A DNA stretch of 64,000 nucleotides, taken from SAR86 cluster bacterium SAR86A. Lineage in GTDB: Bacteria > Pseudomonadota > Gammaproteobacteria > Magnimaribacterales > D2472. The position numbers and the translations under genes are program-made. The stretch is from the NCBI GenBank assembly GCA_000252525.1, contig JH611156.1, positions 578,109 through 642,108 on the forward strand, in the 5' to 3' direction. Positions 45,061 through 63,711 of the stretch are shown here, in pieces; the first letter of the stretch is position 1; the number at the start of each line of letters is the position of its first letter. The notes beneath the pieces are model-generated. The model had not been told where the DNA came from, did not search any database, and saw only the letters and a list, made by a program, of their open reading frames with translations.

Positions 45061-45807
45061 TTATTTTTTAAGTTGGTCTGCGACCCAACTTATCGACCAG
45101 TTATGACCAAGTCTTCTTCCATTATAGGTTTTAGGTAATCTTGTGACTTTACTTCCATCAACTTCTATAATTTGAGGATCATAATCTAAATTATTAAATG
45201 CTCCATCTAGTTCTTTAATTGTTCTCCACTGGTAGAGAGAAACGTTATCTCTGACAAATTTAGGTGCAGAATAATTACACATATTTTTGAAAAGACCTGA
45301 TCTTAGATCAGACGACACAGGCCCGGTTAGTGGCCCTGCCACTGTATGCAAAGTTAATGGTACTTCGTTGATCCATGCCTCTGAAAACATTGCTATGATC
45401 ATAGCGCCATAACTATGCCCCATTAAAACTACCTGTTCAATGTTTTTGTTTTGATCTAATAAACGATTAATTTCATTAGAAAGATTTGCGAATGCTCTGT
45501 TAGGACACAAATTGTCGTTATAACGAAAGAAACTCATTAAATTTTGATTATCATTTATTGTTATTAATGGATATATCCATTCATATCCCTCGCTGTCACT
45601 GCCGTGAACACCAATAAAAAGTACTTTTTGTGAATCAGATTCCTCCTCAAGATAATGCAAACCATTATCAAGAGACATCAAACTTCTTCCACTCTTAAAT
45701 ACCTCTTTTAAATCAAGCTCTTTGACAGAGATATCAGATTTTGTATCAAAAGAAATTATTAATATGATCCAAAAAAATATTTTTAAACCTGAATTTAATA
45801 TTTTCAT
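45061..45807 (-). CDS. Secreted alpha/beta hydrolase (lipase/esterase-like)
   Basis: 248 aa with a signal peptide and nucleophile elbow GHSYG. Confidence 0.7.
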   Translation of the reverse strand: MKILNSGLKIFFWIILIISFDTKSDISVKELDLKEVFKSGRSLMSLDNGLHYLEEESDSQKVLFIGVHGSDSEGYEWIYPLITINDNQNLMSFFRYNDNLCPNRAFANLSNEINRLLDQNKNIEQVVLMGHSYGAMIIAMFSEAWINEVPLTLHTVAGPLTGPVSSDLRSGLFKNMCNYSAPKFVRDNVSLYQWRTIKELDGAFNNLDYDPQIIEVDGSKVTRLPKTYNGRRLGHNWSISWVADQLKK

Positions 45808-45809
45808 CT

Positions 45810-47204
45810 TTACTGTTGCATTGAAAGCAGTTGTTCTTTTGTTGCAAGGAGAATGGATTGATCTTCTTTATTATTTTTTTCATCTAAAAGTTTTTCAATT
45901 TCATTAAGCGCCTTATCAACAGAGCCCCATTTACCCTCGGAGTGAACTCGCTCATTTATTAAATCGTCATATCTACTTTTAATATCTTCAGGAATATTTG
46001 TTGAGTATTTATTACAAATTATTCGTTCGGCTAAAAGACGAAATCTCTCATCTTCAAAATTTCTGGAAATTTTTATTAGCTGCTCTAAATCATCTGTTAT
46101 ATGGAATTCTTTCATTAAATCTTGATCTCTATATGAAGGGAATCCACCTGAATAGATAGTTCCCTCAATATAATCAGGTTCAGGAAAATTCATTATCCTA
46201 TCTTCCATAGCTTGTGAAACCTTAGTAAAAAAATCTTTATTAGATCTAACTATGTCTGCACGTCTTTGGAGTTCATCATGGGTTATATCAAAGTGGTTAT
46301 TTTTCTTTAAAAGCTTACTTGAGCAAATAGGTATAGTTTTGTTGATCTTATATTTTTTAAGGGGTAGATCTCTTTTACCAGACTGAATCATTTTATTAAT
46401 TTCAGTGAAATCTAAATTAATAATGTCATCGGGATCAAAACTTAAATCAAAAAAACAGATCTCGTTAGGTCTAGAATTATCAGCACCACAAATAACAACC
46501 GGATATTTAAAAGGATGTCTTCTATAGACTTCACCAAGAGCTAAGAATTCGTTTGAATACAAAAGATTTTTAATGCCCTCTTTTGTTGATATGTTCAAAA
46601 ATGAATCAAAAACTTCAGGTATTTTATCTTTAATAACTTTGCAAAGACCTATCATAAATTTACAGTCTGAAATTGCATCATGAGCATCGCTTACGTCAAT
46701 TCCATGCTCATCTGCTAAATGTTCAAGTTTGATACTCAAGGCAGGGCCATCTTCAAAATAAGGTATTGATATCTCTTCGGAAAAGAAAGGAGCTATGTTA
46801 TGGATCATTAACATTAAATCTAGTCTTCCATTTTGATTGGTGTTTGTTATGTATGGCTCAAGAAGATTGCACCAAAACTGTCTTCTTATTAATTCTTCAT
46901 CAAAGGCATGTCCGTTATAAGTAATAAAAATTGCTGGTAAGTCTAAGCACCACTCTTTCCACTGATTTTGAATTTCTTTCATCATTTGATAATGCGAAAT
47001 ATTAGATGAAAAGGAATTAATCTTCTTATTTGTAAGCATTGCTTTTGGTTGCGGGATAACCCAAGGTAAAGGAGCACTACCTATATTTTGTTCAGACTTT
47101 TGATTTAAGTTGATATCCGTAAATATGGAACCACATTGTATGATTTGACTAAAATCTTTATGAATTCCTGTAGTTTCAGTATCGTAGAATATTAAATTAT
47201 TCAA
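45810..47204 (-). CDS. sbcB: Exodeoxyribonuclease I
   Basis: 464 aa; DEDDh exonuclease motifs FYDTETTG and HDAISD. Confidence 0.9.
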   Translation of the reverse strand: MNNLIFYDTETTGIHKDFSQIIQCGSIFTDINLNQKSEQNIGSAPLPWVIPQPKAMLTNKKINSFSSNISHYQMMKEIQNQWKEWCLDLPAIFITYNGHAFDEELIRRQFWCNLLEPYITNTNQNGRLDLMLMIHNIAPFFSEEISIPYFEDGPALSIKLEHLADEHGIDVSDAHDAISDCKFMIGLCKVIKDKIPEVFDSFLNISTKEGIKNLLYSNEFLALGEVYRRHPFKYPVVICGADNSRPNEICFFDLSFDPDDIINLDFTEINKMIQSGKRDLPLKKYKINKTIPICSSKLLKKNNHFDITHDELQRRADIVRSNKDFFTKVSQAMEDRIMNFPEPDYIEGTIYSGGFPSYRDQDLMKEFHITDDLEQLIKISRNFEDERFRLLAERIICNKYSTNIPEDIKSRYDDLINERVHSEGKWGSVDKALNEIEKLLDEKNNKEDQSILLATKEQLLSMQQ

Positions 47205-47208
47205 ACTG

Positions 47209-48426
47209 TTAGCTCATATATTTACCAAGCTCATATCTAGCAACAGCTCTTCTATGAACTTCATCAGGTCCATCAGCTAATCTTAGTGTTCGCATGTGAG
47301 CATACATACTTGCAAGAGGTGTTAATTGAGAAACGCCTTCTCCACCATGAATTTGAATTGCTCGATCAATTATTTTTAGAGCGACATTTGGAGCAAAAAC
47401 TTTTATTTGTGCAATCTCACTTGCTGCAACTTTATTACCAACTGTATCCATTTTTACTGCTGCGTCCAATGTTAGAAATCTCGCAGCATTAAGCTCAATT
47501 CTTGATTCTGCAATATAATCAAAATTAGCCCCTAATTGAGCAAGATTTTTACCAAATGCTACTTTGTTGGGATCTATGCCTCTTTTACACATAAGCTCGA
47601 GTGCTACTTCGCCTGCACCAATTGCCCTCATACAATGATGAATTCTTCCAGGCCCTAATCTTCCTTGTGCGATTTCAAAACCTCTACCTTCTCCAAGTAA
47701 CAGGTTTTCTTTTGGAACTCTAACGTTTGTAAATTTCATATGAGCATGTCCATGTGGTGCATCATCATATCCGAACACATGCATCATTTTTTTTATTTCT
47801 ACTCCCTCAGTTTCCATTGGAACAAGTATCATTGAATGACGTTGATGTTTTGGATTATCTGGGTTTGTTACACACATAAAAATGATAATTTTACATCTTG
47901 GATCACCAGCACCTGAAGTCCACCACTTTTCACCATTTATGACATATTCATCCCCATCAAGAACTGCAGTTGCTTGCATGTTAGTTGCATCACTTGAGGC
48001 TGTTCCCGGCTCAGTCATACCAAAAGCAGATCTTATTTTTCCATCTAACAATGGTTGCAACCATTCCTCTTGATGTTGTTCGTTACCGTACCTTGCAATT
48101 ACTTCCATATTTCCAGTATCCGGAGCACTGCAGTTCATTGCCTCTGATGCTATATGACATTTACCCATCTGTTCAGCTAAATGAGCATACTCATAGTTAG
48201 TTAGGCCTGCACCAAACTCACTTTCTGGTAAGAATAAATTCCATAAACCTGAAGCTTTTGCTTTATCTTTTAGCTCATCAATTACTTCAGGATATTGATT
48301 CCATCTATCTTCGCCTTCCTTTATTTGATCATGAAAAACGTGTTCTTTTGGTTTTACTTCATCATTTATGAAGTTTTTTACTCTATCAAGTAAGTCGATA
48401 GCTTCTGGTCTTAATTCAGGCATCAT
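47209..48426 (-). CDS. Acyl-CoA dehydrogenase (FadE2/ACAD10-11-like)
   Basis: 405 aa; [22 protein letters not shown] and LADGPDEVH motifs. Confidence 0.85.
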
Positions 48427-48587
48427 GTGATAAGGTCTCCCGTTATATCAAAAATTTTGTTACTATTATAAATATGGTGAATAGTATGTATGTATCTATC
48501 TCTATGATAGCTGTATGTAGAGTACAAATCTAGACGAAATTTACACATATAGTTTGCTAAAAAAATAACGTAAGGGGAATCGTTAAA

Positions 48588-49490
48588 ATGAAAATAAGTT
48601 CTTTTGATTTAAATTTATTCGTAATTTTAAATGCTATTTATACTGAAGGTAGTCTAACAAAAGCTGCTGAAGTGGTTGGTATTACTCAACCCGCTGTTAG
48701 TAATGCTTTGTCGCGTTTGAGAGAAAAATTTAATGATGATCTGTTTGTAAGAACAGGCTCAGGAATGATTCCAACGCAAAAGACTGAGAATATGATTACT
48801 GATGTTCAAAATGCGCTTACATTAATCCAACAAAGTGTGAATGAGCCAGATACGTTTGATCCAAAATCATCAAAAAGAAATTTTAAACTTTCTTTAGGAG
48901 ATGTTTCTGAGGGAAGAGTGCTGCCATTTATCATGAAAGAAATATACGCAGATTCTAAAAATATTTCTGTTGGAAGTTTCGCTTATCAAAGAAGTGATCA
49001 AGTTCATGCTCTTGCAACCAATAATTTAGACTTTGTTGTTGATCCAATAATACCTAGATCAGATGAAATTAATTCAGAAAAAGTCTTCGAAGATGATTTT
49101 GTAGTGATGTATCGTGAAGGTCACGATCTTTCTAAAATTAAAGATGTTTCTGTCGATGATATTCTTGATCAAAAACATCTTCATGTTTCTAATAGAAGAA
49201 GAGGTCTTCATTTAATAGACACAGAATTAGAAAAAATTGGCTACAGAAGAGAGGTAGCACTAAGGTGTCAGCACTTTCTCATAGCACCAACTATCATTCA
49301 GTCAACAGATTTGGTGCTCATGGGTACTAGAAGTTTTGCAAATAGAAATAATTTACCCTTTGCTGAAATTCCTCTAGATATTCCATCCATGGAATATTTC
49401 TTAATATGGCATAAAAATGACGAAGGTGACGGTGGTCATATATGGATGAAAGATTTAATCGTTAGAGCCTTCAAACACGCTCAAAGATAA
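48588..49490 (+). CDS. LysR-family transcriptional regulator
   Basis: 300 aa; N-terminal wHTH LTKAAEVVGITQPAVSNALSRLR. Divergent from the acyl-CoA dehydrogenase gene. Confidence 0.9.
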   Translation: MKISSFDLNLFVILNAIYTEGSLTKAAEVVGITQPAVSNALSRLREKFNDDLFVRTGSGMIPTQKTENMITDVQNALTLIQQSVNEPDTFDPKSSKRNFKLSLGDVSEGRVLPFIMKEIYADSKNISVGSFAYQRSDQVHALATNNLDFVVDPIIPRSDEINSEKVFEDDFVVMYREGHDLSKIKDVSVDDILDQKHLHVSNRRRGLHLIDTELEKIGYRREVALRCQHFLIAPTIIQSTDLVLMGTRSFANRNNLPFAEIPLDIPSMEYFLIWHKNDEGDGGHIWMKDLIVRAFKHAQR

Positions 49491-49496
49491 ATATAG

Positions 49497-50300
49497 TCAA
49501 CTTAGATTGTGACTTGATGTTTTCACAATCCCTCCATCTGAAGTTATTGTCTCACCAACGGTGTATGCTCCAGCTCTAGAACAAAGAAATATGGCTAAAC
49601 CAGCCATATCCTCTGGAGTGCCAACCCTATTCCTTGGATTTCTTTTTGCAATTTCGCTATAGTCATGATTTACAGCTGCACCAAGCATATTGCTTGGATA
49701 AGGACCAGGTGCAATAGCATTAACCAAAATATTTTCACTAACTAGCCTTGCAGCCAAGACTCTGGTCAGATGATGAACCGCTGCCTTTGAAGCTCCATAA
49801 GGATATGTTTCCATTGATGGAACATTTAAGCCATCAATAGAACCTATATTAATCACCCTGCTAGGATCATCTTCAGTAGCCCTTTCTGAGAGAAGCTCTC
49901 TAAGCTGCTGAGTTATAAAAAATATGGACTTAACGTTAAGGTCCATAACTTTATCCCACCCTTGTTCAGAAAAGCTTTCTAATGGCTCACCCCATGCTGC
50001 TCCTGCATTATTTATCAAAAAATCAATACCATCTTCATTTTCTTTCAAGACTTCTACAAAATCTTTTATGCCCTCCATCGAGCTTAAATCACATGGAATT
50101 GGAATACATTCATTTTGATATTTATCAGACAACTCTTTCGCTTTATCAATTAGAGCAGGAGCTTTTCTGGCAGAAATATATACTTTTACTCCGTTTGCAA
50201 GAAAACCAGCAGTAATCATTTCACCAATACCCCTTGAACCACCAGTAACAACTGCTATTTTATTTTCAATATTAAATAAATTTTCTATTTTCATATTCAA
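49497..50300 (-). CDS. Short-chain dehydrogenase/reductase (SDR)
   Basis: 267 aa; TGGSRGIG cofactor motif, NNAG, YGASKAAV catalytic YxxxK. Confidence 0.88.
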   Translation of the reverse strand: MNMKIENLFNIENKIAVVTGGSRGIGEMITAGFLANGVKVYISARKAPALIDKAKELSDKYQNECIPIPCDLSSMEGIKDFVEVLKENEDGIDFLINNAGAAWGEPLESFSEQGWDKVMDLNVKSIFFITQQLRELLSERATEDDPSRVINIGSIDGLNVPSMETYPYGASKAAVHHLTRVLAARLVSENILVNAIAPGPYPSNMLGAAVNHDYSEIAKRNPRNRVGTPEDMAGLAIFLCSRAGAYTVGETITSDGGIVKTSSHNLS

Positions 50301-50386: not shown

Positions 50387-51340
50387 ATGGATTTTTTAAT
50401 AAATTTCCTTCTATTAGGCCTATCTTTGTCAATATTGATATGGGGAGCTGACAAATTTGTAGATAGTGCTTCAATAATTGCAAAGCAACTTGGCATTAAT
50501 GAATTAACTATAGGCCTAACAGTTGTTGCTTTAGGAACTTCTGCTCCAGAAATTTTTGTTGGCATCTCATCAATTATTAATGAGAGTGAATCTTTAGCAA
50601 TGGGCGCTGTTGTTGGGTCAAATATTTCTAACATTGCTTTAATTTTTGGTGTTTCTTGCATAGGTATTGCTGCTAAACCCAAAAAAACTCCATTAGTACA
50701 ATTTGTTCCATTTTTATTATCATCATTTATTCTCGGTTATGCACTAATTGATTTATCAATTTCAAAATTTGAAAGTGTTTTACTTCTAATAATTTTTTTA
50801 TATTTTATATATGTTACATATCAAAACAGGTCTAATGATGATCAAATGCAAGAAGATTCTTTTCCTGAAGAAGGTTCAATTTATACAATTTTCGCACTTT
50901 TATTTGGATTAATTGCTCTTGTAGCTGGATCAAATTATGCAGTGGTATATGCTGAAAAAATTGCAGTTCTTTTAAAAATTTCAGAGCTTGTTATTGGACT
51001 AACCATCATAGCTATTGGAACTAGCTTGCCTGAATTAGCAGCTACGATTAGTGCAGTAATTAAAAAGAAAACTGATATGGTTGTTGGAAATGTAATTGGT
51101 TCAAACGTCTTAAATATAACTCTGGTCGTTCCAATTATCGGATTTTTCTCAAATGTTCAGCTTGATAGCTTAATTCTATCAAGAGACTTTTTTGTAATGA
51201 TTATTGCAACAATCTTGTTTGTGATTATTGGTATATCCTATTCGTCTAAAGCATTTGGCATTAATTCAATTAAACTAGTTGGACTGATCTTAGTATCTGG
51301 TTATTTGATGTATATTCTTAGTTTGAGTAGCTTAATCTAA
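50387..51340 (+). CDS. CaCA-family Na+/Ca2+ exchanger (YrbG-like)
   Basis: 317 aa; two alpha-repeats, GTSAPE and GTSLPE. Confidence 0.85.
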   Translation: MDFLINFLLLGLSLSILIWGADKFVDSASIIAKQLGINELTIGLTVVALGTSAPEIFVGISSIINESESLAMGAVVGSNISNIALIFGVSCIGIAAKPKKTPLVQFVPFLLSSFILGYALIDLSISKFESVLLLIIFLYFIYVTYQNRSNDDQMQEDSFPEEGSIYTIFALLFGLIALVAGSNYAVVYAEKIAVLLKISELVIGLTIIAIGTSLPELAATISAVIKKKTDMVVGNVIGSNVLNITLVVPIIGFFSNVQLDSLILSRDFFVMIIATILFVIIGISYSSKAFGINSIKLVGLILVSGYLMYILSLSSLI

Positions 51341-51777
51341 GCTTTTCTTAAATAAAGGAGAATTATTCCAACAAAGAAAGCACAAACTTCAAAAACAAAA
51401 AAAGTATTATAGAATCCAGGAGTGGTCGGCAGCATCGAAAAAATAACTCTGCCCAATGCAATTGACCCTACAATAAAAGTTATTAACTTGATTGAAAATA
51501 TTCCAATATTTTCTTTAAAAATTCCCACTAAACACATAATACCTATACAAAGATTAAGACCTCCGTATATTCCTGCAATTTCAGAATAACCAATCTGAGA
51601 AGTTACTGATAGTCCTACTGCTTCCAAAAAACTTGGGTAGCCCAGTTCTAACGCTCCAAGCAAAGGATCTAAAATTGCCCATACACCAATAGTTCCGTAG
51701 ATTACTGCCATGAACAACAAATAAATTCTATTTATCCAAATCAAGTCATATTCTCCATTTTGTAATAAAATTAGCAT
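51337..51777 (-). CDS. Small 4-TM membrane protein (DUF4345-like)
   Basis: 146 aa with four TM helices; family assignment is from memory only. Confidence 0.4.
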   Translation of the reverse strand: MLILLQNGEYDLIWINRIYLLFMAVIYGTIGVWAILDPLLGALELGYPSFLEAVGLSVTSQIGYSEIAGIYGGLNLCIGIMCLVGIFKENIGIFSIKLITFIVGSIALGRVIFSMLPTTPGFYNTFFVFEVCAFFVGIILLYLRKA

Positions 51778-51797: not shown

Positions 51798-52301
51798 ATG
51801 AATACCGATTTAATAAAATATATTACATTTTTTAGTTTGTTTATTGTTTGTATTAATATTAATGGGAAAATTATGCTTGATGAAAATGACAAATTAGTGT
51901 CACCCCTACCAAAACCTTATGATGGTTTAGTATATTCTGTCGACGACCTGAAGTCTTTTATCGTCTCTACTGTGAAATCAAACAAACAACCAATTATTAT
52001 ATTTGGTGCAAACTGGTGTCCTGACTGCAGAATATTTTCTGGAACAATGGACATACCAAAAATTAAATCATACATAGATGATCATTTTGCAATCTTGTAC
52101 ATAGATGTAAAAAGATATGAAATAAACATGCAGTTAATGGAAGAATTTGGAATTCCATCTGCAGAGGGGATTCCAAGAGTTTTAGTATTTGATAAAAGAA
52201 TGAATCTTATAAATAATTCAAATACAACTGAATGGAGAACTGCTAGGGAACGATCAAGTCAAGAAATTTTTGATTTCTTTCAAAACATGACTACTAATTA
52301 A
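51798..52301 (+). CDS. Secreted thioredoxin-fold protein
   Basis: 167 aa with a signal peptide and WCPDC active site. Confidence 0.7.
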   Translation: MNTDLIKYITFFSLFIVCININGKIMLDENDKLVSPLPKPYDGLVYSVDDLKSFIVSTVKSNKQPIIIFGANWCPDCRIFSGTMDIPKIKSYIDDHFAILYIDVKRYEINMQLMEEFGIPSAEGIPRVLVFDKRMNLINNSNTTEWRTARERSSQEIFDFFQNMTTN

Positions 52302-53568
52302 ATTGTCTACTTGCACTTGCAAATATTAGATAAAAAATTCCACCAAAAATTAAAACAAAGGAGCATATGTAAAAAATTGAGCTCCATGAATTAGTTATCT
52401 CAAGAATAAATCCTGCAACTATAGGTGCAAGAATTGCAGCAATCATTCCGATGCTTCCTGCAATTCCAACTAACGAACCAGTATATTTTGGACCAAGGTC
52501 TGCATGATTTACTCCAAATCCACCAGCACAAATACCTGAACAAATGTTAATTAAGCAGAGCAAAATTACAGCATTTAAGAGAGAGTCCTCAAAAGAAATT
52601 AAATATAAGAAAAATGCAGATCCAAAAAATCCTATTGAATTGACAGTTTTTCTAACCTTGATAACTTCATAACCTTTTTTAATTAAGTTATCAGCCAGAA
52701 AGCCTCCCAATATCAGCGCAATCATTGCGACTAAACACGGAATTACAATTGAATATATAAATGCATTTGAGCCTAAATCTATTCCCATACCGCCTTGAGA
52801 GACAGGAGCGTTAACATATTTTGGTAAATAAGATAAAAATGTGTAAAGAGACCAATTATTACAAAATGTAGCAACAGTGATTGCCATAAATGGCTTATTT
52901 TGTATAAGTTTGAGAAATGGTATCGATGAAGCAGAAGTTTTTGCAGGTGCCTCTGATTGTATTAATTCTAATTCGTTTTTAGATAAATTTTTATTGCTTT
53001 CAGGAAAAGATGTAACAGTTGTGTTCCAAAAAAAATACCAAAAAAAGCCTAAAGCTCCAAAGGTATAAAACACCCATTCCCATGAATAATTGGCTATGAT
53101 TAAGGCAGCAACTGCATATCCAAACAAAGTTCCAGCAGCAATTCCGCTATTTGTGAAACCTACAGCTCTAGTCCTTTCTTTAAAAGGTATCCATCTTGCA
53201 TATATAGCATGCCATGATGGGAAAGTTACGCCCTCTCCAAGCCCCATTAATATTCGAATTAAAATCAGCCACCACAATCCTTGATATGAGAAAAAAGGAG
53301 TAATTATTGTAAAAAATGACCATATTAATAGAGCATATCCGAGAACTTTTTTACCGCCATATCTGTCTGCTAAATATCCTCCAACTATCATAGTAATCAT
53401 ATATCCAAAGTAAAAAGATCCTAAAATAATTCCAACTTGAGATTCAGACCAGCCAAATTGCTCTTGCATTGGAATTATTGCTACAGAAATGTTTACTCTA
53501 TCGATGTAACAGATAAATACAGCTAAAAATGATAAAAAGATAATCTTAAATCGGTATGGAATAATCAT
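52294..53568 (-). CDS. MFS transporter, anion:cation symporter (ACS/SLC17-like) family
   Basis: 424 aa, 12 TM; N-terminal DRVNISVAI and GGYLADRYGGKK motifs. Start overlaps the P450 stop (ATGA). Confidence 0.8.
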   Translation of the reverse strand: MIIPYRFKIIFLSFLAVFICYIDRVNISVAIIPMQEQFGWSESQVGIILGSFYFGYMITMIVGGYLADRYGGKKVLGYALLIWSFFTIITPFFSYQGLWWLILIRILMGLGEGVTFPSWHAIYARWIPFKERTRAVGFTNSGIAAGTLFGYAVAALIIANYSWEWVFYTFGALGFFWYFFWNTTVTSFPESNKNLSKNELELIQSEAPAKTSASSIPFLKLIQNKPFMAITVATFCNNWSLYTFLSYLPKYVNAPVSQGGMGIDLGSNAFIYSIVIPCLVAMIALILGGFLADNLIKKGYEVIKVRKTVNSIGFFGSAFFLYLISFEDSLLNAVILLCLINICSGICAGGFGVNHADLGPKYTGSLVGIAGSIGMIAAILAPIVAGFILEITNSWSSIFYICSFVLIFGGIFYLIFASASRQFN

Positions 53569-54950
53569 TCAGGAGTAAATTTTATTGGCATCTCTTGAAT
53601 TGCATGTACAAAATTATTTGGTGCTACTTTCCAGTCACCATTCACTTCAAAATCACTAAAACGAGTCAAAAACTGTTTATAAAACTCTCTTAATTGCATC
53701 AATGCAACAGGCTTGCCTAAGCAAGTATGTCTTCCAATACCAAATGCTAAGTGTTTTTCAGCATTTTCTCTGAGAATATCAAACTTGTCTGGATCTTTGA
53801 AAATTTCTGGATCTCTGTTAGCAGCTCCATACCACAAAGAAATTTTTTCGTATGGGCCTATCATCTGTCCATTTATTTCAGTTTCCTCTAAAGATGTTCT
53901 TCGCATATGGATAACCGGTGATACACATCTTACAGTTTCATTTATAAAGTTTGGTAAGAGCTCATAATTCTCTAATAAAATTTCTTTTTGTTTTGGGTTG
54001 TCATGAAGTAACTTAATTCCGCCACTCATAGTATTTCGAGTTGTATCATTTCCTGCAAAAATTATTAGCAGCCAAGAACCATCAAGAAATTCATCTGAGA
54101 GTTGTTGACCTTCGATTTCTGCATTGGCAATTGCACTCAACAAATCGTCGGATGGATTTTCTCTTTTATTTTTTAAAATGAATCTCCCATATTCAAACAT
54201 TTCGTCAACCATTGCATTAAACATATCAACCATTGCTGGATCTGGTGTACTGTCAGTTTTTCCTTCGTTCTGTTCTTTTATCATTTCATAGGTAAAGTAT
54301 TGAGCCAATTCTAGAAATTCCATCCAAGAAACAAGTTTTTGCCTATCTGCTTCTGGTATGCCAAGGATCTCTGATAACGTAAATATTGGTAATTGCTGAG
54401 AGACTTGCTGTACTAGATTGCATTCACCCATAGGAGCGATGACATCTAATAATTCGCCAACTTTAACAGACACTTTTTTTTGTAATTCATCTACGTAACC
54501 AGATTTAAAAAATGGCATGTGTTCCTTACGAAGCCCAAGATGCATTTCTCCATCTAAATTTAGCATATGGTCGATGGTAGATTTAAAAAGTTTTGGGTGT
54601 CTATTTTCTTCAGTGCCTAAAGTTAATAAATTTCCAGTAGAGTATTGTGAGGAGAAGATCTTAGGATTCATAGATACATGTTTTATGTCGTTATATGAAG
54701 TTAAGACCCAGTAACCAGGCTCAGGATCTGTTGGCATTGGGTCATGGAAGAATACTGGAGATTTCTCTCTAAGTTCTTTATATAAACTAATTGGTTGTCC
54801 TTTAGTAAATAAGTCAAGGTCGTTCAAAGAGCCTGAAGGCTTATGAGGATATGAAATATTGTGTTTTGGATGATTAATCTTATTACTTAAAATTTCATCA
54901 GATAATATGTATCCTGGGTTTGGATTAGTCACCTCCACCTCCTCCAGCAT
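53565..54950 (-). CDS. Cytochrome P450 monooxygenase (I-helix resembles the CYP153/CYP125 omega-hydroxylase type)
   Basis: Heme loop FGIGRHTCLG, I-helix AGNDTTRN, ExxR (ETVR). Start is ambiguous: ATG at 54950, or GTG at 54932 which has AGGAGG-N5. The tracked TTG at 55031 is unlikely. Confidence 0.9.
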   Translation of the reverse strand: MLEEVEVTNPNPGYILSDEILSNKINHPKHNISYPHKPSGSLNDLDLFTKGQPISLYKELREKSPVFFHDPMPTDPEPGYWVLTSYNDIKHVSMNPKIFSSQYSTGNLLTLGTEENRHPKLFKSTIDHMLNLDGEMHLGLRKEHMPFFKSGYVDELQKKVSVKVGELLDVIAPMGECNLVQQVSQQLPIFTLSEILGIPEADRQKLVSWMEFLELAQYFTYEMIKEQNEGKTDSTPDPAMVDMFNAMVDEMFEYGRFILKNKRENPSDDLLSAIANAEIEGQQLSDEFLDGSWLLIIFAGNDTTRNTMSGGIKLLHDNPKQKEILLENYELLPNFINETVRCVSPVIHMRRTSLEETEINGQMIGPYEKISLWYGAANRDPEIFKDPDKFDILRENAEKHLAFGIGRHTCLGKPVALMQLREFYKQFLTRFSDFEVNGDWKVAPNNFVHAIQEMPIKFTPE

Positions 54951-55548
54951 CTCCACCTGCAACTGTTCCATCTGAGGAAGGATTTGGATGAGTAAGATAT
55001 ATGCTAGACATAAACGCTGTACCGTCTCCAAGAGCTGCAGTTATTTCTTTGAGATTTAGTTTTTCACCCAAATCAGAGTAAGGCTGCACATCTCCAGAGT
55101 CTTTATCTACAATAAGTGCATCTTTTTTTGATACTAAAATAATATCTCCAGAAATTATTACTAAGAAGTATTGATTAAAATTGAACATAGATTTTTTGAA
55201 TCTTTTTCGAAATTTAATCTTGCCAGTCTTCCATGACATTTTTGATATTTCTCTTGAGGAAGAAAGAAAGTACATGTATCCATCATGTGAACTTGGTATA
55301 AATGGAATCATTGAGCTATGAAGATAATCTTGATAATGAGACCATAAAAAATCTCCATTATCACTTTTAAAACAATGAACCATTTTAGAGCTCCATGACG
55401 AGCTAAAAACAATAATATAATCTTCGAATTGTCCTATGATGTTTGGCTTGTAACCTGGAGAAATGTCTCCAACCCATACTGGTTTATTTTTAACTAGGTC
55501 GTATTTTGCAATAGATCCTTTTTTGCCAAAAATTGCTACTTTATCCAT
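54925..55548 (-). CDS. Hypothetical cytoplasmic protein with PQQ/BamB-like beta-propeller-type repeats and a Gly-rich C-terminal tail
   Basis: 207 aa; no signal peptide. A motif recurs four times at about 40-50 aa spacing (YDLVKNKPVW, FKSDNGDFLW, MSWKTGKIKF, VDKDSGDVQP). Tail is AGGDAGGGGGD. Confidence 0.55.
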   Translation of the reverse strand: MDKVAIFGKKGSIAKYDLVKNKPVWVGDISPGYKPNIIGQFEDYIIVFSSSWSSKMVHCFKSDNGDFLWSHYQDYLHSSMIPFIPSSHDGYMYFLSSSREISKMSWKTGKIKFRKRFKKSMFNFNQYFLVIISGDIILVSKKDALIVDKDSGDVQPYSDLGEKLNLKEITAALGDGTAFMSSIYLTHPNPSSDGTVAGGDAGGGGGD

Positions 55549-57998: not shown

Positions 57999-58025
57999 AA
58001 ACAAAAAACCCAGCAAAAGCTGGGT
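57999..58025 (-). terminator. Intrinsic terminator inside the TBDR leader (attenuator)
   Basis: Minus strand ACCCAGC-UUUU-GCUGGGU followed by UUUUUUGUUU. Ends about 15 nt before the TBDR SD and ATG. Confidence 0.75.
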
Positions 58026-58032
58026 CAATTCA

Positions 58033-58172: not shown

Positions 58173-58257
58173 TGGTAGGGATGGAGGGAGTCGAACCCCC
58201 ACGCCTTGCGGCACTTGGTTCTAAGCCAAGCGTGTCTACCAGTTCCACCACATCCCC
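58173..58257 (-). tRNA. tRNA-Leu (anticodon UAG), class II with long variable arm
   Basis: 85 nt; acceptor GGGGATG/CATCCCT, anticodon loop CTTAGAA, variable arm TGCCGCAAGGCGT, encoded CCA. Confidence 0.9.
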
Positions 58258-58303
58258 AGGCATTGGCATTATATATAGATAAATTGTATTAGTGGAGTTT
58301 TTT

Positions 58304-58702
58304 TTAAAGGTCGTAGTTTATTAAATCTTTTCTTTTTTTATGAACGTATGTAAGACCTATAAGCGTTATGACTCCTAAAATTGAAGCTACAATATCGTGA
58401 AAGTGATATCCTTCATATACTAAACCACATACTTTTCCAAGAAGCATAAATACGCACAGATAGATCAGAACAGTACCTAATTGAACTTTTGAAGATGAAA
58501 AAATAAACCTTATCAAAATATAACCTGAAGCTACAAAAACTCCCGACATTGTTCTAATAAAGTTCGCTAATGGTGTATATCTCTCAACGCCATCAAAAGC
58601 CGGATACCATGAAACAAAATTAGGTCCCAGCATAGCCCAAAGACCCATTACGCAAGATGTGATGCCTATAATTAATAAATAGCCTTTAAAAATTGTATTC
58701 AT
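58304..58702 (-). CDS. 4-TM membrane protein of unknown function
   Basis: Start at the ATG at 58702 (MNTIFKGYLL), overlapping the upstream small ORF stop (ATGA). Architecture is similar to the protein at 51337-51777. Confidence 0.5.
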   Translation of the reverse strand: MNTIFKGYLLIIGITSCVMGLWAMLGPNFVSWYPAFDGVERYTPLANFIRTMSGVFVASGYILIRFIFSSSKVQLGTVLIYLCVFMLLGKVCGLVYEGYHFHDIVASILGVITLIGLTYVHKKRKDLINYDL

Positions 58703-58911
58703 ATCACTCCCAACATATAAAGTGCTAATAAAAAAGATAAGACTCCAATGCCCATCCAAGTGTACATTTCCTTATAATTGTTAAATTTATATGAATTAAT
58801 TGCAAGAAAACAACAAAAAATTGGCGCGACAACTAAAACACCATAACCAATTAAAATTGCTAATGGAATAAAAGCCAAGAACAAAAATAATTGCAAGATA
58901 AATTTATTCAT
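58699..58911 (-). CDS. Small 2-3-TM membrane protein (70 aa)
   Basis: Hydrophobic throughout and translationally coupled to the downstream gene. Confidence 0.4.
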   Translation of the reverse strand: MNKFILQLFLFLAFIPLAILIGYGVLVVAPIFCCFLAINSYKFNNYKEMYTWMGIGVLSFLLALYMLGVI

Positions 58912-58942
58912 ATAACTATAAAACTATTAATTATCATTTGTG

Positions 58943-59581
58943 TCAATTTTCATTCGCCTGGACTGAATTTAGGTCTTCAGATGAACTGATTTGGGTTTGT
59001 ATCTCAAGAATGGTTTGATTTAGCTGATTTTTATAATTATTAAGAGCTTGTACAGTATCATCAAGTAACATTAATTGAGTATCAATTGAGCTGATATTCA
59101 TTCTTATTGAATTTAAATCTTCCTCAGATAGTCCTAGATTTTCAATATTCTGCATATTTGTTTCAATGCTATTTCGCATCTTTAATAAATTTGTTTGATT
59201 GTTATCAACATCTGTTTGTAGTTTTTGAAGTATTTCTTCTATTTTAATGGCTTGATCCGATAATTTTTGAATATTAACTTTATTTCTTTTATTACTTAAA
59301 TCCCAAAGTTTCCTAACTTCCTTATCTAAAAATTGAATTGAAGATGAAATATCAGTAATCGTGTCATTATTTGTCTCATCAACAATATTAATTTGTTCCT
59401 CAATGAGATTAAGTCTTTCATCGATGGTGTTTAATAATGATTTGTCGTTTTCAGTTTCAAAGGTTTGCCATATCCATAAAAATAAAATACTCATAAAAAC
59501 CAATACATATATAAAACCTACCAAAAGACCACCATTATTTGCTCTTTTCAAATATTCAGGAAATTTTCTTTCAACTTTCAT
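58943..59581 (-). CDS. Membrane-anchored coiled-coil protein
   Basis: 212 aa; a single N-terminal TM (LLVGFIYVLVFMSILFLWIW) followed by about 160 aa of heptad-like N/Q/E/L-rich sequence. Confidence 0.5.
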   Translation of the reverse strand: MKVERKFPEYLKRANNGGLLVGFIYVLVFMSILFLWIWQTFETENDKSLLNTIDERLNLIEEQINIVDETNNDTITDISSSIQFLDKEVRKLWDLSNKRNKVNIQKLSDQAIKIEEILQKLQTDVDNNQTNLLKMRNSIETNMQNIENLGLSEEDLNSIRMNISSIDTQLMLLDDTVQALNNYKNQLNQTILEIQTQISSSEDLNSVQANEN

Positions 59582-59661
59582 ATCTAGTTTTTTATAATTA
59601 AAAATATTAATTATTTAGCTTATAATGGTTATCTATTTTACCTTAACTTAAAGACGTATTT

Positions 59662-60774
59662 ATGAATTTAGACTTTTCAGATGATCAAAAGTTCCTTCAA
59701 GAGGAAGCTAGAAAGTTCCTAGAGAAAGAAAATGCACTTTCTCGCAACAGGTCTGTTTTAGAAAATAATGCAAATGTTGATGTTGAGCTTTGGAACAAAA
59801 TTGTTGAATTGGGATGGACAGGTATTAGAATCCCTGAAGAATATAGTGGATTAGGTCTTGGCCATTTAGAGCTTTGTGTAATTGCTGAAGAATTAGGGAG
59901 ATTTTTAGCACCTGTGCCATTTTCATCATCAGTTTATTTATTTACTGAGGCCATAATTAATTATGCTAATGACGATATTAAAAAAGAAATACTGCCTAAA
60001 CTAGTGTCAGGCGAAGTTATAGGAACACTTGCAGTTGCTGAAGATTTACAGGCTCCTACTGCTGAAAATATTACATTACAAAGTGATAACAATATTTTAA
60101 ATGGAAAAAAGATAGCTGTACCTGATGCCGAAATTGCTACGCATGCAATTGTGGTTGCAAAAACATCTTCAGGGATCTCTCTTCAGCTTGTTGACCTAAA
60201 TGCTGAAGGTGTAAAAATCGAAAAACAAGAAAATATTGATGAGAGCAGAGGTTATTTTTCTATCTTATTTGAAAATTCTCCAAGCAAATTGATAGGTGAT
60301 GAAACTGGCGGCTGGGACTTATATGAAGCTTTGATGAATCAAGCTGCCGTATTGTTTGGTTATGAACAAATAGGTGGATCTCAAGCAGCCTTAGATATGG
60401 CTATTAATTATTCTAAAGAGAGGTATGCGTTTGGAAGACAAATAGGATCATTTCAAGCAATAAAACATAAACTAGCTGATATGTATATTGCCTTAACACT
60501 TGCAAAATCTAATTGTTATTACGCTGCATGGGCGCTTTCGACTAACTCAGCTGACTTACCTTCGGCGTCTGCTACAGCTAGAGTAAGCGCAACAAAAGCA
60601 TATCAACTCTGCTCAAAAGAAAATATTCAAACTCATGGTGGTAATGGTTTTACATGGGAATATGATTGTCATATGTTCTATAGGCGATCAAAACTATTAT
60701 CTTTAAATATAGGCTCACTAAGTAACTGGAGAGAAAAACTGGTTACCAGCCTTGAACAATCAAATATTAATTAG
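59662..60774 (+). CDS. Acyl-CoA dehydrogenase family protein lacking both catalytic-base positions (beta-like subunit)
   Basis: 370 aa ACAD fold (HGGNGFTWEY). Where MCAD has YEGT this protein has LNIGS, and where IVD has LERL it has MNQAAV, so no catalytic Glu is present. Confidence 0.8.
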   Translation: MNLDFSDDQKFLQEEARKFLEKENALSRNRSVLENNANVDVELWNKIVELGWTGIRIPEEYSGLGLGHLELCVIAEELGRFLAPVPFSSSVYLFTEAIINYANDDIKKEILPKLVSGEVIGTLAVAEDLQAPTAENITLQSDNNILNGKKIAVPDAEIATHAIVVAKTSSGISLQLVDLNAEGVKIEKQENIDESRGYFSILFENSPSKLIGDETGGWDLYEALMNQAAVLFGYEQIGGSQAALDMAINYSKERYAFGRQIGSFQAIKHKLADMYIALTLAKSNCYYAAWALSTNSADLPSASATARVSATKAYQLCSKENIQTHGGNGFTWEYDCHMFYRRSKLLSLNIGSLSNWREKLVTSLEQSNIN

Positions 60775-60782
60775 GAAAAATT

Positions 60783-62003
60783 ATGGATTTTAACGACACC
60801 CCCGAACAAGCTAAATTTAGAAAAACATGTAGAGATTGGCTAGAAAAAAATGCACAGCTTAAAGATAGTTCACCATCTGAGTCTAATTTCGCTAACAAAG
60901 ACATAATTAAAGAAGCGAAAGCATGGCAAAAAAAGAAATATGATGCAGGTTGGGCCATGCTCCACTGGCCTAAAGAATATGGAGGTATTGGCGCATCTCC
61001 AATAGAAAGAATTATTTGGGCTAATGAAGAATCAAAGTTCAATGTACCAAAAGGTATTTTTGAAATTGGGTTAGGTATGTGCGGACCAGTAATGATGCAG
61101 TATGCTTCTGAGGAACAAAAAGAAAGATACTTACCTCCGATGGCTGAGGGTAAGGAAATTTGGTGTCAATTATTCTCAGAACCTTCAGCTGGATCTGACG
61201 TTGCTGGCCTAAGAAGTAAAGCAGTTCAAGATGGGGATAAATGGATAATAAATGGTCAAAAAGTTTGGACATCTGGTGCACACTTCTCTGATTATGGAAT
61301 TCTTGTAGTTAGGCATGATCCAAATCTTGAAAAGCACAAAGGTTTAACATTCTTTTTTGTTGATATGAAATCTCCAGGAATTGAAGTAAAGCCAATAAAA
61401 CAAATTACAGGTGGATCAAGTTTTAATGAGGTTTATTTCACAGATGTAGAAATACCTGATTCACAAAGACTTGGAGAAATTGGTGACGGCTGGAAAGTGG
61501 CGATTACAACCCTTATGAATGAAAGGTTGGCTGTTGGAGACGCGGATGGATGTGATGTTGAGGATGCATTCAAATGGGCTAAAACACAAGATAATCAGGG
61601 TGAACCCCTCCTTAATGATAAAGCTGCAAGAGAATCTATTGCTGATTGGTACTGCGAAGCAAGTGGACTTAAAAATACTAAACTCAGAACAATGTCTGCT
61701 TTATCAAAAGGCGATACACCAGGACCAGAAGCATCTATTACAAAAATCGTTAGTGCTGGAAAACTTCAAGATATAGGAAATTTTGGAATTGATTCAATGG
61801 ATATGACTGGTATGTTAAAAACTGATGATCCAGATATAAGAAGATTCCAAAATGCATGGCTTGGTGCTCCCGGACTAAGAATTGCTGGTGGAACTGATGA
61901 AATTCTGAGAAATATTATTGCTGAGAGAGTTTTGGGCCTTCCACAAGATCCTAGGGCAGACAAAGGAGTTGCATACAAAGATATTCCATCAGGAAAGTCT
62001 TAA
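60783..62003 (+). CDS. Acyl-CoA dehydrogenase family protein with IVD-type catalytic Glu (alpha-like subunit)
   Basis: 406 aa; CQLFSEPSAGSDVAG, WTSGAHFSD, MNERLAVG (Glu at the IVD/LCAD position) and IAGGTDEILRN motifs. Confidence 0.85.
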   Translation: MDFNDTPEQAKFRKTCRDWLEKNAQLKDSSPSESNFANKDIIKEAKAWQKKKYDAGWAMLHWPKEYGGIGASPIERIIWANEESKFNVPKGIFEIGLGMCGPVMMQYASEEQKERYLPPMAEGKEIWCQLFSEPSAGSDVAGLRSKAVQDGDKWIINGQKVWTSGAHFSDYGILVVRHDPNLEKHKGLTFFFVDMKSPGIEVKPIKQITGGSSFNEVYFTDVEIPDSQRLGEIGDGWKVAITTLMNERLAVGDADGCDVEDAFKWAKTQDNQGEPLLNDKAARESIADWYCEASGLKNTKLRTMSALSKGDTPGPEASITKIVSAGKLQDIGNFGIDSMDMTGMLKTDDPDIRRFQNAWLGAPGLRIAGGTDEILRNIIAERVLGLPQDPRADKGVAYKDIPSGKS

Positions 62004-62004
62004 G

Positions 62005-63711
62005 TTATCTAAAAATAGCTAGGAATTTAAGAAATTCTGTATTGCCTCCTTGCACAACTATTTCTCCAGATGAAATAGATGAAACAGGGTTTTTTAGTCC
62101 AGTAAGAACTCTTTTTAATTCAATTTCTTGTGTTAGTACCTCTAGATCACAATTATTTTGCGCTTCATTAGAGATAACAGCAACACCATTCCTAAGAGTA
62201 ATACTTCTTACTAATCCTGAACTAAAATTAAAGCATACCTTGTATAGAGACCCATCATGATCTTCAGGGTTAAACCTTACGGAAAGAACATTAAATAGGG
62301 TGTCAATCGATAAATTATTTAAAAAGGTGTCATCAATATTCATTAAATTAGTCAGCTCAAATTCATCATTAAGCTCTAAGGCAGATGATAAAAAATAATT
62401 CCTTTTGTTTGGATTGGAAGATTTAGCACCTTCATGTATAAGTGCTTTTTGTCTCAAAGTTTTAACCTCTGAATTAAAGAGGTCTAGCGAAATAAGATAA
62501 TCACTTAATTCAAGAGCCCATTGCATATCTTCTTTATCCACAGCTAGTCTAAGCTCTTTTATCAATTCATTTTCTCCGCCAGCTAATTTTGATATCCTTT
62601 TTGCTTTCTCTTTTCTTGATAAAGGATCTAATTCAGCGGGATTTCCATTAAACCATCCTAAATATCCATTAAATATGCTTTTCACGGACCACCTAACTGT
62701 TCCATAGAATTCGTATAAAAAAGGAGAGCTTGACAGGTTTTGAGGTAACTCTATCATTTCAGATATTTCATCAGGATAATAACCTGCATTCATAAGTCTA
62801 ATTGTTTGATCGTGAATATATTGGATTGCATCTCTGTATGTAATAAAAATATTGTTTATTTCATTTTTTCCAATAACAGGTCTTGTATGACTGGGAAATA
62901 AATATTCAGGATAAAATGATTTCATTAGGTCAAGACTTTCTATCCATCCTGTTACGTCGCGATGCGTGGTGCCTCTAATGGTATATAGATTAGGGAACGT
63001 TTTATAAATATTATCTCCAGGCATGAGCGATTTATGTTTCGGAAGCCACACAAATATTTGATCATTTGTTTCTCCTGGAGCATGATAAAGTTCAATTTCA
63101 ATACCTGAAATTGTAATTTTTAATTCATCACTAAATGTAAGGTCTGGTTTTACATAACCATTTGGAGATTTTGAGACATTTAAACGGGGCCCTATTCCAA
63201 CATTTATGAGCTCTTCTTCTGGTAAAAAAGTTCCAAACATTCTCGCACTTCTTTGAGTGATGATTGGGTTTAAAATCCCAATAATTCTTTGAACGTAATA
63301 ATCAGTATCCTCATGAGCAATTATTTGAGGTTTATAATCTTGTATATCTAAATAATAAGCAGCACCAAAGGTATGATCACCATGATTATGGGTGTAAATG
63401 ATTGCTTTGACAGGATTTGAATTCTTTTTTCTAAATAGTTCATATATTTTTTCAGCATCATATCTACTATCAGCAGCATCAATGATGATATTCCCATCTT
63501 GACCCTCTACCATGATTGAATTTGCAATACCAAAACCAATAGCAAAATGAATTTTTCCACCAGGGGTATCAAATGTAATTACCTCTTGGTTAAATTCATC
63601 TGAATGTTTTATGAGTTTTTCTACTTCAGATGTAGTTGGAACATTAAACTCAAGGTTTTCTTTTGAGCAGGAAGTTAATATTAAAAAAGTTAATATTGCG
63701 TATTTATACAA
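62005..63711 (-). CDS. Alkyl/aryl-sulfatase lipoprotein (MBL-fold, SdsA1/BDS1/YjcS family)
   Basis: 568 aa; lipobox LILTSC, MBL motif HNHGDH, dimerisation-domain motif GYLGWFNGNPAELDPL, SCP2-like C-terminus. Confidence 0.8.
   Translation of the reverse strand: MYKYAILTFLILTSCSKENLEFNVPTTSEVEKLIKHSDEFNQEVITFDTPGGKIHFAIGFGIANSIMVEGQDGNIIIDAADSRYDAEKIYELFRKKNSNPVKAIIYTHNHGDHTFGAAYYLDIQDYKPQIIAHEDTDYYVQRIIGILNPIITQRSARMFGTFLPEEELINVGIGPRLNVSKSPNGYVKPDLTFSDELKITISGIEIELYHAPGETNDQIFVWLPKHKSLMPGDNIYKTFPNLYTIRGTTHRDVTGWIESLDLMKSFYPEYLFPSHTRPVIGKNEINNIFITYRDAIQYIHDQTIRLMNAGYYPDEISEMIELPQNLSSSPFLYEFYGTVRWSVKSIFNGYLGWFNGNPAELDPLSRKEKAKRISKLAGGENELIKELRLAVDKEDMQWALELSDYLISLDLFNSEVKTLRQKALIHEGAKSSNPNKRNYFLSSALELNDEFELTNLMNIDDTFLNNLSIDTLFNVLSVRFNPEDHDGSLYKVCFNFSSGLVRSITLRNGVAVISNEAQNNCDLEVLTQEIELKRVLTGLKNPVSSISSGEIVVQGGNTEFLKFLAIFR

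Follow-up and report, generated by a model that had tools for sequence, protein, structure and literature searches.

Why should a short stretch of a streamlined marine genome be crowded with genes for the breakdown of hydrophobic compounds, and do these genes serve a single pathway? The question is raised by the right-hand 19 kb (positions 45061-63711) of a 64,000-nucleotide stretch of SAR86 cluster bacterium SAR86A, which we refer to as the window and which covers positions 578,109 to 642,108 of contig JH611156.1. This block encodes a TonB-dependent receptor (TBDR), a cytochrome P450, a major facilitator superfamily (MFS) transporter, three acyl-CoA dehydrogenases (ACADs) and an alkyl-sulfatase-like lipoprotein. 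An earlier note on this DNA had joined them into one route, in which sulfated long-chain or sterol-type lipids would be taken up by the TBDR, desulfated in the periplasm, imported by the MFS transporter, omega-oxidised by the P450 and shortened by beta-oxidation through an ACAD pair. Comparison with about 130 loci of relatives led us to a different answer: the 19 kb are probably a vertically inherited, tightly packed stretch with several independent catabolic units, not one pathway.

The window, with a G+C content of about 32%, belongs to a SAR86 (Magnimaribacterales) genome; the P450 it encodes shares 98% identity with the one in the single-cell genome SAG AH-321-O14, and orthologues of this P450 were found in 60 further SAR86 species. 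Family assignment through Pfam, NCBIfam and PDB sequence searches recovered all the gene families claimed by the earlier note, each in its place, and added four features that it had overlooked: a tRNA-Leu gene, a gene for a 207-residue orphan protein (U207), a coiled-coil protein gene and a DUF4136 gene. The left 45 kb consist of housekeeping genes, including those for Opp permease, a PpiD-like chaperone, Lon (a call that rests on gene order and size alone), ClpXP, trigger factor, GDH, HtpG, GpsA, FolD, DnaX, RecR, DsbD and MscS; an exact look-up of the DsbD-like protein gave no record. Lipid- or sterol-type catabolic genes account for 7 of the 17 genes in the right block and for 1 of the 42 on the left (Fisher p = 4e-4, post hoc). 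With an expectation built on 12-13 ACADs per SAR86 genome (Dupont 2012, PMC3358033), the Poisson probability of three ACAD genes in 18.65 kb is 4e-4 to 8e-4, or 0.008-0.012 if they are taken as two loci. The density of such genes in the right 19 kb is unusual and, because the left 45 kb are housekeeping, the contrast between the two sides is real; the local enrichment described in the earlier note is thereby upheld.

The genes on which the comparison of relatives turns are the following.

52294-53568, minus strand: MFS transporter of the anion:cation-symporter (ACS/SLC17-like) group, with an MFS_1 domain
53565-54950, minus strand: class-I cytochrome P450, CYP125-like, with p450 domain PF00067; its start is uncertain (54950, 54971 or 55031)
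54925-55548, minus strand: U207, a 207-residue SAR86-restricted cytoplasmic protein, conserved orphan between TBDR and P450
55608-57983, minus strand: TBDR with plug and barrel domains, first gene of the TBDR-U207-P450-MFS string
58007-58026, minus strand: terminator-like hairpin between tRNA-Leu and TBDR, with an 8-bp stem (5 GC pairs) followed by a T-run
58173-58257, minus strand: tRNA-Leu(UAG), called by ARAGORN and Rfam; the variable cassette begins directly downstream of it in all lineages
59662-60774, plus strand: ACADa, non-catalytic beta-type subunit, with Q226 at the catalytic Glu position and the flavin adenine dinucleotide (FAD) motifs lost
60783-62003, plus strand: ACADb, catalytic alpha-type subunit, with E246 in LMNERLAVG and the FAD motifs kept
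62005-63711, minus strand: alkyl-sulfatase-like lipoprotein of metallo-beta-lactamase (MBL) fold (COG2015), of a 'Pro-type' clade, convergent on ACADb with a 1-nt gap

A first comparison was anchored on the P450 in species-level genomes with a flank of 10 kb on each side, and 42 loci offered at least 9 kb on both sides. Grouped by P450 identity, the loci had these neighbours in their flanks.

P450 at least 80% identical, 24 loci: MFS in 24, CaCA exchanger in 24, ACADb in 22, sulfatase in 22, TBDR in 21, SbcB in 17
P450 64-77% identical, 18 loci: MFS in 1, CaCA exchanger in 1, ACADb in 1, sulfatase in 1, TBDR in 0, SbcB in 0

A single locus of the distant group, L044, keeps neighbours, while the other 17 of 18 hold none of these genes within 10 kb; their P450 is found instead beside genes for a beta-lactamase-family protein, phospholipid synthesis, an M16 peptidase and Fur. 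In the near clade, where the gene order as a whole is retained, genes foreign to the catabolic theme are kept as well as those that belong to it, as seen for the Na/Ca exchanger (24/24) and exonuclease I (17/24), and beyond this sub-clade all neighbours of the P450 change together. Because unrelated genes are equally conserved and the neighbours are lost beyond the sub-clade, the co-localisation reflects shared ancestry of gene order and not selection for a cluster. The earlier note had proposed to judge its pathway by whether the genes stay together in relatives, which they fail to do outside one sub-clade. The P450, TBDR, U207 and sulfatase genes are moreover present or absent independently of one another.

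A second comparison, anchored on ACADa, covered 80 metagenome loci in which this protein is 64-99% identical to that of the window. The backbone shared by these loci comprises the coiled-coil gene, ACADa, ACADb, the sulfatase gene, DUF4136, PreP and SLT, with an MnmC-like gene before DUF4136 in some. Of the 49 independent loci long enough to show the sulfatase gene, 32 have it abutting ACADb and 17 lack it; loci with and without it share the same housekeeping backbone (PreP, SLT, LigA-like, or LysS/PrfB). The P450 is present in only 3 of the 12 metagenome loci that span the slot downstream of tRNA-Leu. Without it, the slot holds TBDR-MFS (L100 and L113) or TBDR-GH16-MFS (L089), GH16 being a glycoside hydrolase of family 16, with TBDRs 73-97% identical to that of the window; other slot-spanning loci carry a Rieske oxygenase, an arg operon and an MFS gene. 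Thus the TBDR-P450, P450-MFS, P450-ACAD and ACAD-sulfatase pairings are each broken in some lineages. Another TBDR, 22-25% identical, was observed beside the coiled-coil gene and the ACAD pair in the more distant lineages L127, L130, L138, L141 and L157 (about 1800-9200 in L157), in loci that also hold a DUF3604 protein, a DUF4345 protein and a lipoprotein alcohol dehydrogenase of the pyrroloquinoline quinone (PQQ) type with a cytochrome c domain.

The slot itself revealed a mosaic. In the window the TBDR, U207, P450 and MFS genes are co-directional, with a 59-nt gap, then an overlap of the U207 open reading frame (ORF) with the P450 start, then an ATGA overlap between the P450 stop codon and the MFS start that we read directly at the junction. 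The earlier note had treated the TBDR, P450 and MFS genes as an operon, a unit that dissolves among relatives: more than eight arrangements occur downstream of tRNA-Leu within the syntenic clade, in which TBDR, U207, GH16 and P450 each come and go. Besides the TBDR-U207-P450-MFS order of the window, we found U207-x-TBDR-P450-MFS, TBDR-GH16-P450-MFS, GH16-TBDR-U207-P450-MFS, TBDR-U207-P450-GH16-MFS, GH16-P450-MFS, U207-P450-MFS, P450-MFS and U207-P450-MFS-TBDR. The TBDR may be absent, moved or paired with GH16; an arginine operon lies between P450 and MFS in L044 (P450-[argF/G/AB/C/H]-MFS), and strain-specific inserts of 2.6-8.5 kb occur at tRNA-Leu in L023, L047 and L055. Turnover of the cassette was documented in L005, L012-L016, L023, L044, L047, L055, L083, L089, L095 and L100. 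tRNA-Leu(UAG) thus marks a hot spot of cassette swapping in SAR86. A DNA methylase-HNH gene was also seen in the slot of some lineages, and L047 keeps only a partial tRNA-Leu copy.

The orphan U207 varies in presence and position among relatives. Only 154 homologues were found among 5.8e9 proteins, all restricted to SAR86. Its AlphaFold2 model (pLDDT 79.8) predicts a four-bladed half beta-propeller followed by a disordered Gly/Asp-rich tail, and Foldseek matched it to BamB and PQQ propellers (TM about 0.45-0.5, 10-12% identity) with no functional lead. The BamB label given to it by JGI is a mislabel, and some public gene calls stretch its ORF wrongly over the tRNA-Leu gene, yielding 250-residue versions.

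The remainder of the block, from tRNA-Val to a thioredoxin-like gene, together with the second DUF4345 gene, bears on what gene spacing can tell.

44978-45054, plus strand: tRNA-Val(GAC), left edge of the block, called by ARAGORN and Rfam, at the same position in relatives
45061-45807, minus strand: secreted alpha/beta-hydrolase-like protein with a GHSYG nucleophile elbow, last gene of the ACAD1-sbcB-hydrolase string
45810-47204, minus strand: SbcB (exonuclease I), housekeeping, with Exonuc_X-T_C and RNase_T domains
47209-48426, minus strand: ACAD1, acyl-CoA dehydrogenase of ACAD11/FadE2 type by its PDB sequence matches
48588-49490, plus strand: LysR-family regulator with HTH_1 and LysR_substrate domains, divergent from ACAD1 with a 161-nt spacer
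49497-50300, minus strand: classical short-chain dehydrogenase/reductase (SDR) with adh_short domains
50387-51340, plus strand: CaCA Na/Ca exchanger with two Na_Ca_ex domains, outside the catabolic theme
51337-51777, minus strand: DUF4345 membrane protein, copy a (PF14248, 23.6 bits, just under the gathering score)
51798-52301, plus strand: secreted thioredoxin-like protein with a WCPDC motif and Thioredoxin_7 and Thioredoxin_2 domains
58304-58759, minus strand: DUF4345 membrane protein, copy b (PF14248, 23.8 bits), kept beside tRNA-Leu

The block as a whole divides into 11 or more transcription units, which use both strands and have unrelated genes between them. The ACAD1-sbcB-hydrolase string is co-directional with spacers of 4 nt and 2 nt and, because an exonuclease lies within this tightest of strings, spacing is no sign of shared function in this streamlined genome. 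The orientation of the SDR, CaCA exchanger, DUF4345 copy a and thioredoxin-like genes alternates. A scan for promoters returned 60 consensus sites in the window sequence and more, 86, in the shuffled sequence, and so carries no information in a genome this AT-rich.

ACAD1 scored 473 bits against 4hr3 and about 430 against ACAD11 (2wbi, 8v3u), with ordinary ACADs at 146 or below, which bears out the description of a FadE2/ACAD10-like dehydrogenase with a divergent LysR regulator. The similarity to ACAD10/ACAD11 and mycobacterial FadE2-type enzymes extends along the full length; unlike ACAD10/ACAD11, however, ACAD1 is a stand-alone ACAD domain, and no gene for an aminoglycoside-phosphotransferase-like kinase was seen in its annotated neighbourhood. 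The top NCBIfam models of the LysR protein, BsrA and LeuO, both remained under their cut-offs, as did that of the SDR (gluconate-5-dehydrogenase subfamily, 217 bits against a cut-off of 279). The GHSYG hydrolase, found in only part of the relatives, gave sub-threshold Pfam matches (Lipase_3, PGAP1, Abhydrolase_1) and no NCBIfam match.

The two DUF4345 genes are highly divergent and flank the variable cassette, and a third copy lies within the insert of L014. That the pair might represent the duplicated flanks of a mobile module was ruled out, as the identity is 33% over 40 residues only (E = 0.005).

The reading of several independent units would divide the block as follows. The first unit would be the ACAD11/FadE2-type dehydrogenase, presumably under LysR control and in one string with sbcB and the small secreted hydrolase. 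The second would be the flexible cassette just downstream of tRNA-Leu(UAG), with the TBDR, U207, the CYP125-like P450, whose most likely role is terminal hydroxylation of a sterol, isoprenoid or long-alkyl chain, and the anion-family MFS transporter, most likely an importer of an organic anion. A third would be an alpha/beta ACAD in which, judging from sequence, ACADb is the catalytic subunit and ACADa a scaffold, with a probably bulky or dicarboxylic acyl-CoA as substrate. The fourth would be the DUF4136 gene followed by the putatively periplasmic Pro-type alkyl-sulfatase-like MBL lipoprotein. Their common hydrophobic-substrate flavour would stem from a genome-wide specialisation of SAR86, and their adjacency from gene order inherited by descent combined with cassette turnover at the tRNA.

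Such a specialisation fits what has been reported for the group. TBDR loci with differing catabolic content are on record for SAR86 (Dupont 2012, PMC3358033), as are homologues of fadE26/27 and cyp125, the former more widespread than the latter (Freel 2024, PMC11582366), and steroid side-chain or ring catabolism has been predicted (Freel 2024, PMC11582366; Bergstrand 2016). The lipid/steroid side-chain theme of SAR86 is thus already published (Dupont 2012; Bergstrand 2016; Freel 2024). Dupont 2012 (PMC3358033) and Freel 2024 (PMC11582366) share with the present analysis the organism group and the combination of TBDRs with hydrophobic-substrate enzymes, but deal with annotations and gene copy numbers and do not include this block, the turnover at tRNA-Leu or the sulfatase-like lipoprotein.

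Several observations weigh against a division into independent units. ACAD, P450 and sulfatase genes are denser here than the genome average; several rearrangements leave the TBDR close to the P450 and MFS genes (21 of 24 species); and the sulfatase gene stays beside the ACAD pair down to 64% ACADa identity. The persistence of the TBDR-P450-MFS and sulfatase-ACAD linkages could reflect selection. Separate positions, furthermore, do not disprove a shared substrate, because the genes of one pathway need not cluster.

The possibility of a shared substrate is best considered from the ACAD pair, whose steadiest neighbour is the coiled-coil gene: almost every one of the 80 metagenome loci has it next to ACADa.

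58943-59581, minus strand: membrane-anchored coiled-coil protein, divergent from ACADa with an 80-nt spacer, with no significant family match in Pfam

ACADa and ACADb are co-directional, 8 nt apart and 24% identical; wherever a locus contains both, they lie side by side. ACADb displays the FAD motifs SEPSAGSD and WTSGA, which are invariant, together with E246, in 27 orthologues. The equivalent segments of ACADa read AEDLQAPTAEN and KIAVPDA; SEPxxGSD and WTSGA are absent from all 28 of its orthologues, in which position 226 is Gln in most and His in some. E246 is located at what we take to be the catalytic-base position of IVD/LCAD-type enzymes (IVD, ChsE4), and the FAD motifs presumably have the roles established for ACADs. 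Because only ACADb retains the base and the FAD motifs, the pair can be assigned with confidence to the alpha/beta heteromeric dehydrogenases, with ACADb as the predicted catalytic subunit, in agreement with the heteromeric type proposed before. Against the PDB, ACADb scored 173 bits with Tcur3483 and 164 with ChsE4, the next best being 121, while ACADa gave a near tie between Tcur3481 (125 bits) and isovaleryl-CoA dehydrogenase (121.6). The top NCBIfam model of ACADb was pimC_large (226 bits, cut-off 624); IpdE2 was highest for ACADa, which also matched pimD_small (115, cut-off 653). PimC/PimD of Rhodopseudomonas palustris, which act in dicarboxylate beta-oxidation, are likewise a two-gene pair of large and small ACADs, but the scores lie far under the equivalog cut-offs and no pimA/B/F-type ligase, hydratase or thiolase is adjacent. 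A ligase, hydratase and thiolase cluster around the pair was not found among the annotated genes of the window or in the conserved backbone of relatives. One metagenome locus (L131, 573-5232), too slender a basis for any conclusion, has a LysR gene (38% identical) and an ACAD11-like gene (56% identical) directly after the ACAD pair, whereas 11 kb separate these kinds of gene in the window.

The P450 translation harbors FGIGRHTCLG in the Cys-ligand loop, AGNDTT with the acid-alcohol pair, and ETVR (ExxR). Its best PDB match was the reconstructed CYP125 ancestor (CYP125MRCA, 255 bits), which hydroxylates cholesterol and phytosterols, followed by CYP153-type enzymes (184-200 bits), CYP268 (188) and extant CYP125/124/142 enzymes (157-171), of which CYP125 alone gave 157-161. 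The protein falls in the terminal-hydroxylase group, which supports this part of the earlier note. By bit scores only, with no tree, extant CYP125 enzymes rank below the CYP153 alkane hydroxylases. We also considered a carbohydrate O-demethylase of the kind reported from algal-glycan loci (Reisky 2018): no such enzyme was identifiable among the 60 best PDB matches, whose titles are partly generic and whose top named entries hydroxylate lipids, sterols, alkanes or terpenes, and the idea is retained only within the glycan alternative considered below. The P450 orthologue has been relocated in the complete SAR86 genome CP097973, where a Rieske/KshA_C-type oxygenase gene (L052, 3742-4704) lies about 5 kb away from it, surrounded by genes for amidohydrolase and DDAH.

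Among the alternatives to independent units, the one that survives best, though we consider it unlikely, places the P450 and the ACAD pair in one dispersed route for sterol or isoprenoid side chains, without sulfate esters and with its other steps encoded elsewhere. Its model is the actinobacterial cholesterol system, in which cyp125 and chsE4-chsE5 (fadE26-fadE27), or Tcur3481-Tcur3483, likewise combine a terminal-hydroxylase-type P450 with a pair of catalytic and degenerate ACADs. The affinity of the P450 with the CYP125 ancestor, the best matches of ACADb, the alpha/beta asymmetry and the published predictions for SAR86 all fit this route. The higher scores of CYP153 than of extant CYP125 enzymes, the pimeloyl-CoA dehydrogenase large subunit as top NCBIfam model of ACADb, the equal closeness of ACADa to isovaleryl-CoA dehydrogenase and Tcur3481, and the broader distribution of fadE26/27 than of cyp125 in SAR86 do not. 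In contrast to the actinobacterial genes, the P450 and the ACAD pair of the window lie about 4.7 kb from each other on different strands and are separated in most lineages, the P450 not being near most ACAD-pair loci; nor is there a CoA ligase, MaoC hydratase, Ltp2 aldolase/thiolase, Mce4 transporter or ring-degradation gene nearby, or any further steroid gene in the 64 kb. The P450 of the window is about equally close to CYP153 and extant CYP125, and no sterol catabolic genes were found near it, its neighbours varying between SAR86 lineages and being unrelated to sterol catabolism.

We regard as improbable a second alternative, in which the TBDR and MFS transporter, with GH16 where present, form an uptake module for laminarin or a similar beta-glucan and the P450 is a mere neighbour in the slot. 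The GH16 of relatives is a secreted, laminarinase-type enzyme (PF00722; 135 bits to 3azx and 4dfs) that shares a co-directional string with TBDR, P450 and MFS genes, at three positions, in 16 loci: 11 from genomes (L016 at 8988-9968, L006-L009, L013, L017, L018, L020, L043, L047) and 5 from metagenomes (L083, L084, L086, L089, L110). The slots of L089, L100 and L113, in which the receptor and transporter occur without the P450, favor this view as well. Laminarin clusters have been reported for some SAR86 (Francis 2021, PMC8371827), and the TBDR of relatives lies beside laminarinase-type GH16 and MFS genes as in the TBDR-GH16 laminarin loci of marine Gammaproteobacteria and Bacteroidota described there, but in contrast to those loci the window contains no GH16, and SusD, GH17, GH30 and GH3 partners were not found. 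No other glycoside hydrolase is nearby, and the presence of TBDR and that of GH16 showed no significant association (Fisher p = 0.64). The transporter also argues against a glucan: characterised bacterial ACS-family MFS proteins (TC 2.A.1.14) carry organic anions, not neutral gluco-oligosaccharides. The earlier designation of this protein as an anion-type MFS holds as far as the ranking of models goes, TIGR00894 (274 bits, cut-off 626) and TIGR00893 (218 bits, cut-off 395) being its top NCBIfam matches, and is weakened by both scores lying below the cut-offs.

There remains the sulfatase-like lipoprotein, on which the original proposal of a sulfated substrate depended and upstream of which lies a further lipoprotein gene.

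63721-64000, minus strand: DUF4136 lipoprotein gene that runs off the window, leaving only its C-terminal part; it is co-directional with the sulfatase gene and lies 9 nt upstream, and its translation shares 71% identity with the L012 DUF4136 protein

The protein was described as a lipoprotein alkyl-sulfatase with an SCP2-like C-terminus, and its architecture stands: three domains exceed their gathering scores (PF00753 Lactamase_B, 69 bits; PF14863 Alkyl_sulf_dimr, 136; PF14864 Alkyl_sulf_C, 39) and the lipobox is conserved. The MBL, dimerisation and SCP2-like layout, the HxHxDH motif with its metal ligands, and the Asn/Thr/Arg/Arg sulfate-binding positions of Pisa1 are common to this protein and the type III enzymes SdsA1, SdsAP, Pisa1 and YjcS. 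Its motifs YTHNHGDH, PGE, GDN and FPSH align with the ligands of YjcS, SdsA1, PSdsA and Pisa1, and all seven metal ligands are kept in 25 of 25 SAR86 orthologues; those of the binuclear zinc site in SdsAP are H192, H194, D196, H197, E303, E322 and H367 (PMC5426288).

The catalytic part of the description is less secure. Compared with SdsA1, SdsAP, Pisa1 and YjcS, the protein is about 90 residues shorter, carries a lipoprotein signal and has Pro in place of a His. In our alignment, a His preceding Asn is conserved in YjcS, SdsA1, SdsAP and Pisa1. We take this residue to be His317, the general-acid histidine of Pisa1, as the number fits the alignment; the numbering reportedly goes back to work by Knaus in 2012. 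The corresponding residue is Pro in the window protein (TFPNLYTIRG, residues 238-247) and in all 25 SAR86 orthologues. In the nearest representative clusters with a readable motif (n = 106), all of them nearer to the window protein than any characterised enzyme, this position is occupied by Pro 103 times, by Ala 3 times and never by His. We know of no characterised member of the Pro-type clade. Because the clade is uncharacterised and has Pro at the general-acid position, 'alkyl sulfatase' is a family-level label. In characterised alkylsulfatases the His is held to protonate the leaving sulfate (PMC3920027). A homologue search with the sulfatase gave at least 120 matches; those listed were all SAR86 proteins at least 69% identical and told nothing about distant contexts.

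We nevertheless entertain, as a long shot, that the Pro-type lipoprotein may be a periplasmic esterase acting on sulfate esters that occur naturally in the sea, for instance sterol sulfates of diatoms or alkyl sulfates of algae, and would unlock carbon only, the alcohol feeding a dispersed route through the P450 and the ACAD pair. Sterol sulfates are made by diatoms (PMC5670183, PMC6356472), and SAR86 is unable to assimilate sulfate (Dupont 2012, PMC3358033), so that a sulfatase would serve access to carbon and not sulfur supply. If this were true, the recurrent sulfatase-ACAD adjacency would be the trace of a functional linkage.

The full sulfated-lipid pathway has the presence of every family in its favor, as well as the lipobox, metal ligands and sulfate-binding residues of the sulfatase, the diatom sterol sulfates, the carbon-only use of desulfation and the adjacency in 32 of 49 loci. 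It is nonetheless the least probable reading, hardly to be credited, as its units are gained, lost and moved independently: the P450 is apart from the ACAD pair and sulfatase in most lineages, the TBDR is lost in several species and accompanied by GH16 laminarinase in others, the sulfatase gene is missing at 17 of 49 loci and has Pro for the general-acid His, no CoA ligase, hydratase, thiolase or P450 redox partner (ferredoxin) was found in the annotated neighbourhood, and an anion importer is a misfit because the product of periplasmic desulfation is a neutral alcohol.

Two groups of genes outside the block deserve mention. A type I sulfatase-family gene (PF00884; 14801-16615, minus strand) is located in the housekeeping left part, 46 kb away from the MBL-type gene and unrelated to it, and is followed by rhodanese-like and glutathione S-transferase genes (13876-14808 and 13218-13871). 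Just left of the block, genes for a secreted beta-lactamase-family serine hydrolase and a pseudoazurin-like cupredoxin (43152-44357 and 44480-44935) are part of the same gene order conserved in relatives.

For streamlined genomes, these results mean that tight spacing and adjacency are weak evidence of a shared pathway: here, a lipid dehydrogenase shares its 'operon' with exonuclease I, and an arginine operon can separate the P450 from its transporter. The alkyl-sulfatase-like enzymes form a large uncharacterised clade whose chemistry is not to be assumed from SdsA1 or Pisa1, and the GH16 in the cassettes of relatives raises the possibility that the receptor handles beta-glucan. The slot adjacent to tRNA-Leu is a place where SAR86 lineages exchange receptor-centred uptake cassettes, in keeping with the view that diversification of transport is what drives the diversity of SAR86.

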